From an uncultured bacterium (GTDB lineage: Bacteria > Acidobacteriota > Thermoanaerobaculia > Multivoradales > JAHZIX01): a stretch of 64,000 nt of DNA. A program made the position numbers and the translations under genes. Location of the stretch: positions 1 to 64,000 of the forward strand of contig CBDUPA010000025.1 in NCBI GenBank assembly GCA_965368975.1, written 5' to 3'. This document shows positions 1,283 to 45,676 of the stretch, in pieces. The notes below the pieces were generated by a model that was not told the DNA's origin, ran no database searches, and saw only the letters and a list, made by a program, of their open reading frames with translations. The number at the start of each line of letters is the position of its first letter. The first letter of the stretch is position 1.

Positions 1283-4200
1283 TCAGTCCTCGTCCTCGGG
1301 CCCGTCTTCTGGCTCTTCGTCGACTTCGGCATCCTCGTCCTCGTCATCGTCCTCGTCGTAGGACTCGGAGAGCTTCTCGAGCACCAGCGCCAGCTCGGCA
1401 ACACTACGCGCGTCGAACAGGCGTTCGAGGGCAACCGGGAAACCAACCATGTCTTCGAGCTGCGCGATCATCTGCATCGCCAGCATGCTGTGGCCGCCGA
1501 TCTGGAAGAAGTCGTCGTGGATGCTGATCGTCTCGACGTTGAGCAGTTGCTGCCAGAGTTCGATCAGCGCTTCTTCCAGTTCCGTGCGCGGTGCCTCGAA
1601 TTCGGCTTCGGTGGCGGCGCGATCGAGGTGGGGTGCGGGTAGGGCCGCGCGGTCGACTTTGCCGTTGGCGGTCAGCGGCAGCCGGTCGAGGAACAGGAAG
1701 TGCTGCGGCACCATGTAGTCGGGCAGACGCTCGGCGAGGTACTCCTGCAGCACCTTCACCTCGGGCTTGTCTTCAGCGACCACGTAGGCGACCAGGCGGG
1801 CAGCTTCTTCGAGATCCTTGCGCGCCACCACGACCACGTCGTCGACGCTGGCGTGCTCCTGCAGCAGGGCTTCGATCTCGCCCAACTCGATGCGGTAGCC
1901 TCGCACCTTGACCTGGTGGTCGAAACGGCCCAAATAGTCGAAGCGACCGTCGGGCAGCAGGCGGACCAAGTCGCCGGTGCGGTAGATGCGGGCGCCGGCC
2001 TCGACACCGGAACCAATACCTCTGGACCCCGCACCTAGGCCGGCGAAGGGATGCGGCATGAAGCGACTGGCGGTCAGTGCGGGGCGACCGAGATAGCCCC
2101 AGGCAAGACCATCGCCACCGGCGCACAGTTCACCAGCTGCCCCGGCCGGCACCAGGTCGCCCCGAGCGTCCAGCAGGTAGACGGTGGAGTTGGCGGGCGG
2201 GCGGCCGATGGGGACGGAGGCGGCACCGGGGCGAGCGTCTTCGGCGGTGATGCGACCGATCACCGAGTAGACGGTGTTCTCGGCCGGGCCGTAGCCGTTG
2301 ACCAGGCGTCCACACTGGTCGCCGCTACCCTGTGCGAAGCGGCCAGCAAGCAGGCGGCGGCTGGCTTCGGGATCGACCGCCTCGCCACCGACGATGAGGT
2401 CGCGCAAAACATCGAAGGTCGAAGGACGGACGCGCACGGTCTGCGCGAACAACGCAGAGGGAACGAAGGCGTTCTCGACCTGGCGGCTGGCCAGGTAGTG
2501 CTCGAAGGCAGCCGGTTCCAGGGTCACCTCGCGCGGCACGACCACCAGGCAACCACCATGCAGCAGCGCCGCCCACAGTTCATAGACAAAGACGTCGAAA
2601 GCGGTGTTGACCACCTGGGCGACGCGCAGACCGTCATGGAAATCAGCATAGCCGGTGGCCAGAACCAGGCGGGCCACCGCACGGTGCGGCACGGCCACAG
2701 CCTTGGGTCGCCCGGTGGAACCGGAGGTGTAGATCAGGTAGGCCAGATCGAGCGGGGCCAGATCGGCGGCTTCCTGCCTTCCGGGTAGGGACATCCCTGT
2801 GTGGGCGCCCTGCGGCGCAGCCGCGTCCGAATCCGTAGTTCCCCGCTCCCCCACCACCACGACGGCCCCACAATCCCGCACCACGAACTCGACGCGCTCC
2901 GGCGGGTAGTTGATATCGACGGGCACGTACGCCCCTCCCGCCTTGACCGCTGCTAGCGCCGATTCCGCCAGCGCCAGGCCGCGCTCCAGGTGCAGCGCAA
3001 CGCGATCGCCGCGACCCACACCCCGAGCCCGGAACTCGGCGGCCAAGCGATCGGTGCGCTGGTCGAGCGTCGCGAAGCTGAGGTGGTGTTCAACCTCGGC
3101 GCGCGCGGCGCCGTGGCCCAGGAGTGCCGGCGCTTGCAGCGCGATCGAGTCGCGGCGCGACGCGGCGGCGCGGGCGAAGAGTTCGGGCAGCGAGGCGTCG
3201 CGCGGGAAGTCGGTCACCGTGTCGTTGATCTCGATCAGCAGCTGGTGTTGCTCCGCGGGGCGCAGCAGCGGCAGCTCAACCAGCCGCCGAGCGGGGTCCT
3301 CGGTGACGGCGGCGAGCAGGGTCTCGAAGTGACCGAGCAGGCGGGCGATAGTGGTGCCGTCGAACAGGCTGCGTCGATAGGCACAGCTGAGTGACAGCAC
3401 GCGCTGCCCGCGCTCGTCGGAGCCTTCGAAGACCTGCAATTCGAGATCGAACTTGGCCACCACGGCGTCGCTGTCCTGACTGAGCAGGCGCAGTCCCGGC
3501 AGGCTGAGTCCACCTTCCCCACCGCCGGTGGGGGCATTTTGCAGCGCGAACAGCACCTGGAAGAGCGGCGAACGGCTGCGATCTCGCTCAGGGGCCAGCT
3601 CCTCGACCAGGCGCTCGAAGGGGATGTCCTGGTGGTCGAAGGCACCGAGCGCCGCGATGCGCACGTGCTGCTGCAGGTGGCTGAAGGTAGCGTCGCGATC
3701 GAGGCGAGCCCGCAGTACCAGGGTGTTGACGAAGAAGCCGATCAACGGCTCGACTTCGCGCTGACGCCGGCCCGCAATCGGGGTACCGACACCGAAATCG
3801 GCTTGCCCGCTCCAGCGCAGCAGCAGAGTCTCGAAGACGCTGAGCAGGGTGACGAAGAGCGTGTTGCCGGCGCTGCGCGCCAACCGGTCGGTGCTCTCCG
3901 TGAGGTCGGAACCCAACATGCGAAGCGCGACTCCCGCTACCGGCGTCGCCACCGGCGGACGCGGGCGATCGGTGGGCAGTTCGAGCGCGGGAACACCCGT
4001 CAGCTGAGAGCGCCAGTAGGCGAGTTGGACATCGAGGATGGTGCGGCCGGTTTCCCCGTCGAGGCCGGGAGCGGAGCTGGACAGCCAGGCGTGCTGCCAG
4101 GCAGCGAAGTCGGCGTACTGGACGGGTAGCTCTGGCAGGGGCAACTCGGATAGTGGCTGCTCGGATTGGGGTTGCAGCGTCCAGCGGCCCTCGACCCAGG

Positions 4201-45676: not shown

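Follow-up and report, generated by a model that had tools for sequence, protein, structure and literature searches.

In-frame GTAG hairpins of a REP-like family concentrate in adenylation-domain loops of giant NRPS and PKS genes in an uncultured Acidobacteriota genome

The DNA analysed here is a 64,000-nucleotide stretch (hereafter the window) of contig CBDUPA010000025.1 from the genome assembly of an uncultured Acidobacteriota bacterium (GCA_965368975.1), and it contains a giant hybrid nonribosomal peptide synthetase-polyketide synthase (NRPS-PKS) gene that carries short GTAG hairpins within its coding sequence. By their sequence, the hairpins belong to a family of repetitive extragenic palindromes (REPs) and inverted REP doublets (REPINs), a type of element that RAYT (HUH/Y1) transposases mobilise. 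This family and a second GTAG family appear to have landed repeatedly inside giant NRPS and PKS genes. Nearly all landing places are surface loops or linkers, chiefly the a2-a3 and a8-a9 loops of adenylation (A) domains, and single copies replaced native loop sequence instead of extending it. We consider it likely that the hairpins are selfish REPINs that persist only where a loop is permissive; tolerance alone may not account for their site bias.

A GTAG hairpin family dispersed through the genome

All five elements recognised in the window lie within one stop-free open reading frame (ORF), 1283..45676(-), encoding 14,797 aa. Pfam matches to Condensation, AMP-binding and PP-binding domains and to three ketoacyl-synthase/acyltransferase (KS-AT) units identify the product as a hybrid NRPS-PKS, in which the elements occupy the first A domain, one middle A domain and the last two A domains (Table 1). 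The element consists of GTAG, an 8-bp arm, a 6-nt loop and a second 8-bp arm (~26 bp). Searching the window for GTAGRGGCNGSC-N6-GSCNGCCC with at most two mismatches returned four sites (6289+, 22243+, 43741+ and 43797-43822 minus), whereas shuffled sequences gave a mean of 0.18 sites and 0/100 shuffles reached 4.

The initial annotation of the window had described five such hairpins. The sequence agrees, and four of them are clean, but the fifth, at 2785, has decayed to 5/8 stem pairs by count on the sequence. It had also noted that two copies are identical and that the stems covary, and both remarks hold: 22243(+) has the same sequence as 43797(-), and the stems alternate between GGCGGCC and GGCAGGC. 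Its placement of four copies just before the A3 motif and of one in the A8-A9 loop is likewise borne out by the ends of Pfam matches and by the motifs that follow. At sites 2779, 6284 and 43736 the upstream AMP-binding match stops at profile position 101-104 of 384 and LAYxxYTSGSTG appears ~8-20 residues downstream, which identifies the a2-a3 loop; at site 22238 the upstream AMP-binding match is complete and LPDYMVP lies 14 residues past the element, in the a8-a9 loop. The single shared reading register that had been proposed is a property of this gene, in which the antisense copies read QGAHTGMSLP, QGRHMGLPLP, EGGHMGPPLH and EGRHIGLPLH and the sense copy reads VGAAPCGRP, but across the genome four registers are in use.

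The genome comprises 7.13 Mb in 59 contigs with 65.4% G+C, the window being contig C25. A strict IUPAC pattern matched it exactly 70 times, against 0 matches for the reversed control. A structural regular expression found 90 copies with strong stem covariation, 68/90 of them with perfect stems; it required the 27th base to be C or T, one base too strict, so that 90 is an undercount, and family counts were taken from an nhmmer profile census. Built from the copies and run against the genome, the profile gave 142 matches at E<=10 and 111 at E<=0.1, so the earlier view of a REP-type family with further copies in the genome stands. Matches with E between 0.1 and 10 were mostly the opposite strand of known copies and thus give no sign of old remnants. 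The 111 matches form 81 sites, comprising 53 singles, 26 doublets and 2 triplets. This census is a lower bound, because the assembly breaks at REP repeats.

Aligned flanks define the full unit as TCTGG, the GTAG hairpin and then a small second hairpin, TGCGGCGnAGCCGCATCCGGAT. In doublets, a C-rich spacer and an inverted partner follow the second hairpin, and these inverted doublets measure ~90-110 bp. Intragenic and intergenic copies have the same flanks (TCTGG-GTAG..., second hairpin TGCGGCGnAGCCGCA). The family thus shows a GTAG tag with a short palindrome, many dispersed copies and inverted doublets that can fold as one hairpin, as REPs do. It departs from the textbook description of REPs as extragenic, since 47 of the 111 matches, at 37 sites, lie inside 22 stop-free ORFs of at least 3 kb, and all 37/37 of these sites lie in open frames, with the frame kept and no stop introduced.

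Outside this genome, 30 related genomes, none of the same genus, yielded one single match to the strict pattern. The consensus GTAGGGGY RNNC CCRTGT GNNY RCCC recurs in metagenome-assembled genomes (MAGs) of many distant phyla, in at least 125 stretches of the collection scan; Clostridia, Bacteroidota, Chloroflexota, Planctomycetota, Acidobacteriota and Omnitrophota are among the matches listed. In one of these stretches, from an Omnitrophota MAG (L127:1-276), a REP doublet of this type immediately precedes LAYVIYTSGSTG within the a2-a3 loop of an NRPS.

Two further features of the assembly were seen. Its megasynthase load is extreme, with 63 stop-free ORFs of at least 7 kb making up 12% of the genome. 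In addition, contigs end in or beside a REP within an NRPS gene at the end of C40 (28471-28517), at C10:67 and at C22:1-350.

Placement in loops and effect on the protein

To place the copies relative to genes, we used a crude codon-model gene finder trained on the genome's long ORFs, which called 4,122 genes (84.8% coding). By this gene model 46 matches lie in coding sequences (CDS) of at least 3 kb, which make up 22.8% of the genome, and 4 in CDS below 3 kb (62%); of the others, 57 fall between genes and 4 overlap the end of a CDS. Giant genes hold 36/39 coding sites, against an expected share of 27% (p 1e-17). In ordinary genes, one half-decayed REPIN doublet was observed just before the A3-like motif (LALLFTSGTTSEPK) of a stand-alone 511-aa AMP-binding (acyl/aryl-activating) enzyme (C16:85164-86696), and one perfect REP is read as GRPHGGAPTQ within a Ser/Glu/Pro-rich linker of a 762-aa protein (C14:31551-33836); another match in such genes is weak (20 bits).

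The domain context of the sites was obtained with Pfam, by scanning 500 residues on the upstream side of 36 sites and on the downstream side of 10. NRPS/PKS Pfam domains were matched by 35/36 scanned upstream flanks, and the exception, on C14, has FabA domains downstream. The a2-a3 loop holds 14 sites, the a8-a9 loop 9 and the a6-a7 loop 1, and one more site lies elsewhere in the A core. The others are in or before C domains (3 sites), in C-A linkers (2), in or at KR domains (3), in a DH domain (1), in a T-C linker (1) and before the FabA domains of a PUFA-type synthase (1), and one site is probably upstream of the true start codon. In natural interrupted A domains, methyltransferase domains are described at a2-a3, a8-a9 and a6-a7 (PMC8341866), the same three locations that here account for 14, 9 and 1 sites.

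The genome encodes 185 full A domains, spread over 67 ORFs, and 20/185 carry a copy. Within these domains 20/22 sites fall in the a2-a3 and a8-a9 loops, compared with 7.0 expected (p 1e-8). The initial annotation had suggested comparing A2-A3 loops with other CDS and intergenic DNA, and the enrichment it envisaged is evident: per Mb there are 310 sites in a2-a3 segments and 194 in a8-a9 segments, against 22 in giant CDS, 0.7 in ordinary CDS and 39 in non-coding DNA, figures that depend on the crude gene model and small counts and on intergenic DNA much of which may itself be non-permissive. A CTAC/GTAG target within the codons of the A3 and A9 motifs was considered, but the distance between element and motif is not constant.

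The reading frames in use are restricted. Of the element's six frames, five are open, and copies use four of these (17, 11, 5 and 9 copies). The remaining open frame, which is Arg-rich (RMRLRRRAATWGRPY), is used by 0/42 coding copies (p ~1e-4 if frames were equal), its sole user being a probably non-coding copy. At no site do the two coding flanks lie in different frames. We read the unused Arg-rich frame and the lack of any frame mismatch as purifying selection on working genes. All copies found in genes are stop-free and frame-preserving, their peptides are rich in Gly, Pro, Ala, Thr and His, and the inserts, of 9-69 aa, add no extra Pfam family to the host protein.

Loop lengths were measured by aligning the 185 full A domains to a hidden Markov model built from 60 foreign homologs. 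The a2-a3 segment has a median of 75.5 aa without a REP (n=172), 71 aa with one (n=9) and 86 aa with two (n=4). The a8-a9 segment has a median of 65 aa without a REP (n=178) and measures 62, 69 and 80 aa with one, 93, 95 and 107 aa with two and 121 aa with three. In the second-last A domain of the window gene (site 6284), 68 residues separate A2 from A3, compared with a homolog median of 65. REP-less a2-a3 segments are longer (median 75.5) than the 68 match positions of the homolog profile, and the difference could be a trace of older, decayed inserts.

The same second-last A domain was modelled with AlphaFold2 (pLDDT 90.1, pTM 0.90). The REP peptide has the lowest confidence in the model (60 and 71 for the blocks covering 131-150) and lacks secondary structure. 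The translated insert is accordingly predicted to be a floppy loop segment.

Origin of the copies and competing explanations

The DNA that flanks the sites is 64-75% identical to that of other modules, yet most hairpins are perfect; near-perfect hairpins in host modules this divergent therefore point to separate, recent insertions. Sites differ from one another in orientation, frame and stem variant and in how far they lie from the A3 motif. The nearest paralog of the doublet at 43736..43824, on C12 (62% aa identity), has a doublet in the same loop with different stems and with its second half in a different frame. The last modules of the window gene and of a C12 gene, whose proteins are 76% identical, hold different elements in the same loop: the alignment extends to ...AVVVVGE and resumes at L.P.DLAY, so that homology breaks exactly at the loop borders, and between them the window gene has a decayed REP (27 aa) and the C12 gene a 207-bp element of the second family (78 aa).

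These comparisons bear on the idea that the elements are not mobile at all, but are old loop sequences inherited through module duplication and homogenised by gene conversion among paralogous loops. A shared element does occupy the same loop in the first modules of the C25 and C12 genes, in neighbouring C36 modules (one copy decayed, one fresh) and in the C22/C40 pair, and single copies leave loop length unchanged, as this idea would have it. However, 57 intergenic copies consist of the same element with the same flanks, the nearest paralog has a copy in the same loop in just 2/13 cases for A2-A3 and 1/7 for A8-A9, and sister loops differ in orientation, frame, stem variant and even element family. 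We regard immobility as quite improbable.

A candidate for the mobilising enzyme is present. Among three Y1_Tnp matches in the genome, one is a 170-aa RAYT-like protein whose translation contains an HUH-like NHVHGVL stretch and YIEENP. It scores 28.3 bits against PF01797, above the cut-off of 23, and 68 bits against NF047646 (REP-associated tyrosine transposase), below the cut-off of 80. Inverted repeats of 61 nt, with GTAG hairpins inside them, lie on either side of its gene. The initial annotation had anticipated a RAYT gene flanked by the elements, and a RAYT-like gene between GTAG hairpins does exist, but those hairpins represent a sister family, GTAGGGGCGCA...TGCGCCC, with 22 copies. Given the GTAGGGGCG...GCCC frame common to the two, the RAYT-like enzyme may move both GTAG families.

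The sister family has the same preference for loops, with five of its five intragenic sites in a2-a3 loops. It also forms a 207-bp element with two inward-facing GTAG hairpins, conserved subterminal parts and a variable centre (Table 1). Two paralogous Y1/HUH-like proteins of 316 and 343 aa, each with an NHYHLLL stretch, were also observed (C14:96700-99924, L001; C10:160993-164196, L003); they have long C-terminal extensions and match PF01797 and NF047646 weakly, and a check of the repeats flanking their genes gave none that was convincing.

Could the hairpins instead be recombination hotspots, as the initial annotation had offered, serving as nicking or homology sites for swaps of A-core cassettes that diversify the 185 A domains? 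A3-A9 is described as a recurrent exchange unit in microcystin synthetase (PMC8097286), and the two favoured loops bracket this unit. Two A domains have family copies in both loops (C12, at 215438 and 216539; C36, at 19615 and 20716), in a third an element of the second family occupies one loop and a doublet the other (C12, at 218872 and 220060), and the loop density above that of intergenic DNA would also suit such a role. Tests for exchange itself, by identity tracts, nearest-neighbour concordance and REP-bearing neighbours, lent the idea no support. Best paralog matches are 64-75% on both sides of the element, with no tract of high identity that begins or stops at a REP, and the sole 93% pair (C22/C40) has a REP in both members, with C40 ending inside it. 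REP-bearing A domains are no more mosaic than the others: the N-part and the core have concordant nearest neighbours in 6/13 REP-bearing and 24/172 REP-less domains, a difference in the opposite direction (p 0.008), and for the a8-a9 loop the concordance is 2/7 with a REP and 40/178 without. Copies also lie in KR, DH and C domains and in linkers. A hotspot function is therefore improbable.

A role in RNA or translation, in which hairpins in the 44-kb transcript would slow ribosomes between subdomains for folding or would protect the mRNA, meets similar difficulty. The sites do lie at subdomain borders, and folding energies are -16 to -20 kcal/mol for perfect copies and -55 kcal/mol for the doublet, stronger than for shuffled sequences (z -1.5 to -2.8). 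Both orientations and four frames occur, however; decayed copies persist, the one at 2779 folding no better than shuffles; only 20/185 A domains have a copy; and copies inside genes are not better preserved than those between genes (median 33.9 versus 32.65 bits, p 0.23). Such a role is, in our view, highly improbable.

REP invasion tolerated in loops, another of the readings first proposed for the window, fits nearly all of the data, and selfish REPINs retained in permissive loops are our preferred explanation. Insertions that break the frame or are badly placed would be purged, which would imply that the synthases are under selection. Loops that already hold an element could act as self-refilling landing pads, because an existing GTAG hairpin would offer the transposase a new cleavage and target site. 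Pads of this kind would explain why loops are denser in sites than intergenic DNA and why sister modules carry different elements in corresponding loops. The host would not need to benefit.

Several observations weigh against this explanation as it stands. The loops hold more sites per Mb (310 and 194) than non-coding DNA does (39), which random insertion followed by tolerance does not predict; at most about one quarter of random insertions would keep the frame and avoid both a stop and the basic frame, so uniform insertion and filtering should not leave loops denser than non-coding DNA. The excess hints that loops are targeted or that one REP replaces another. Because loops with a single REP are not longer, simple insertion is insufficient; the unchanged length suggests that a deletion followed the insertion or that replacement took place at a pre-existing element. 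Hairpins of the sister family, not of the family in the window, flank the RAYT-like gene, whose product falls below the NCBIfam cut-off.

Finally, insertion is deduced rather than seen, as no empty-site allele was found in related genomes, paralogs, proteins or public runs. The 30 related genomes, none in the same genus, do not allow the comparison, and the 93% identical C22/C40 pair provides no empty site, with a REP in both and contig C40 ending inside it. A protein search with 400 aa around site 6289 returned a best identity of 45%, hence no orthologs. Six DNA runs and no RNA run were listed among public matches, and the six share just 6-8% of the sampled words. Contigs from four public runs gave fragments ~90% alike; four of the pieces listed, two per side, end at 6230-6260 or begin at 6320-6324, at the REP, and three of these four have 43-73 non-aligning letters at the REP border. 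A self-reinforcing landing pad could reconcile the selfish-REPIN explanation with the density excess, the replacement pattern and the occurrence of two families in sister loops.

An extension of the landing-pad idea, which we think rather unlikely, is that the a2-a3, a6-a7 and a8-a9 loops are preferred, self-renewing pads and that GTAG/RAYT elements are the vehicle that brings foreign coding sequence there: longer cassettes of the 207-bp type, in the end entire domains like those of interrupted A domains, or A-core cassettes between two hairpins. If true, it would provide a mechanism for a long-noted regularity of NRPS architecture.

The surroundings of the giant gene are of housekeeping type and include genes for a cytochrome c-like protein, an aminotransferase, GyrB/ParE- and GyrA/ParC-like subunits and a TRAP transporter. 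The cytochrome c-like gene (196-1161) is the next one downstream. A carrier domain at 1283-1700 apparently terminates the giant protein, and the Pfam results for its 14,797 aa include no match to a thioesterase or reductase.

Table 1. Hairpin elements of the window and copies of the 207-bp element of the second family
Feature	Coordinates	Strand or parts	Reading	Location	Scores
Single REP, decayed	2779..2814	+ (antisense to gene)	DAAAPQGAHTGMSLPG; LAYLIYTSGSTG next	a2-a3 loop, last A domain	nhmmer 17.3 bits, E 0.035; AMP-binding match upstream to profile position 104/384; RNA fold z -0.53
Single REP with TGCGGCGCAGCCGCA flank hairpin	6284..6318	+ (antisense)	DAAAPQGRHMGLPLPG	a2-a3 loop, second-last A domain	31.6 bits; RNA hairpin -15.9 kcal/mol
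Perfect single REP	22238..22272	+ (antisense)	EGGHMGPPLH	a8-a9 loop, middle A domain	32.6 bits; RNA hairpin -20.3 kcal/mol, z -2.8
REPIN doublet	43736..43824	REP(+) 43741-43766, REP(-) 43797-43822	VGAAPCGRPGWGNGGPDAEGRHIGLPLH	a2-a3 loop, first A domain	27.9 and 31.5 bits; one long hairpin -55.4 kcal/mol, z -2.4
207-bp element, intragenic	C12:199303-199509		69 aa in frame	a2-a3 loop of one NRPS	
207-bp element, intragenic	C12:218872-219078		69 aa in frame	a2-a3 loop of the same NRPS	
207-bp element, intergenic	C1:298739-298944			intergenic	
207-bp element, intergenic	C3:441527-441733			intergenic	

Significance and comparison with known systems

The copies can be read as an insertion experiment done by nature on assembly-line enzymes: in 185 A domains, 9-69 foreign residues survive in three loops known to take whole domains, and they also survive at a few spots in linkers and in KR, DH and C domains. 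This gives NRPS engineering an independent map of permissive sites, and for the biology of mobile elements it presents a REP family almost half of which lies within genes of one enzyme class. In practical terms, the peptides QGTHxGVPLP, GHPHGGAPT, VGAAPCGRP and GRGGPMWPP are to be expected when synthases of such genomes are annotated, and assemblies can be expected to break at REPs in these synthases.

The closest precedent is the set of REP-decorated proteins described by Di Nocera, De Gregorio & Rocco (2013, BMC Genomics 14:522; PMC3733652), in which GTAG palindromes likewise lie in frame inside genes. The GTAG/CGTC REPs reported there occur singly or as dimers, add ~9-35 residues and were suggested to occupy flexible loops or linkers, and the supplement includes one dimer in a P. 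syringae NRPS (Psyr_1958, residues 823-859). The hosts named in that source are varied, with many replication and repair genes, whereas here 36/39 intragenic sites are in giant NRPS/PKS genes. Compared with the set as presented there, the family described here also differs in having 42% of its copies within genes, in its use of two defined A-domain loops and in the presence of a second family with the same preference. Our literature search for megasynthase-wide REP colonisation, or for a match between REPs and interruption sites, found no paper; the 2013 study lists the single NRPS case.

With the REP/REPIN-RAYT systems described by Bertels & Rainey (2011; PMC3116915), the family shares the GTAG hairpin, inverted doublets that fold into a single long hairpin, dispersed copies numbering tens to hundreds, and a RAYT-like gene that is present once, between hairpins. 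The REPINs in that account are extragenic, and here the RAYT-like gene is bracketed by the sister family, with mobility presumed. The Rickettsia palindromic elements (cited in PMC3733652) are, as presented there, likewise selfish palindromes in frame, which add a surface peptide to genes that remain functional; in contrast to the present family, they are of an unrelated sequence family with longer units, and their hosts are many housekeeping genes of a reduced genome rather than one enzyme class.

Interrupted A domains (PMC8341866) have the same insertion points, a2-a3, a8-a9 and a6-a7. The interruptions covered by that source are functional methyltransferase inserts of ~260-390 aa, whereas those described here are 9-69 aa, have no domain match and are modelled as coil, and so do not belong to that group. 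The class of event is known, and what is unusual is its scale, its restriction to assembly-line enzymes and the match to the sites at which A domains are naturally interrupted, the scale and this match being new.

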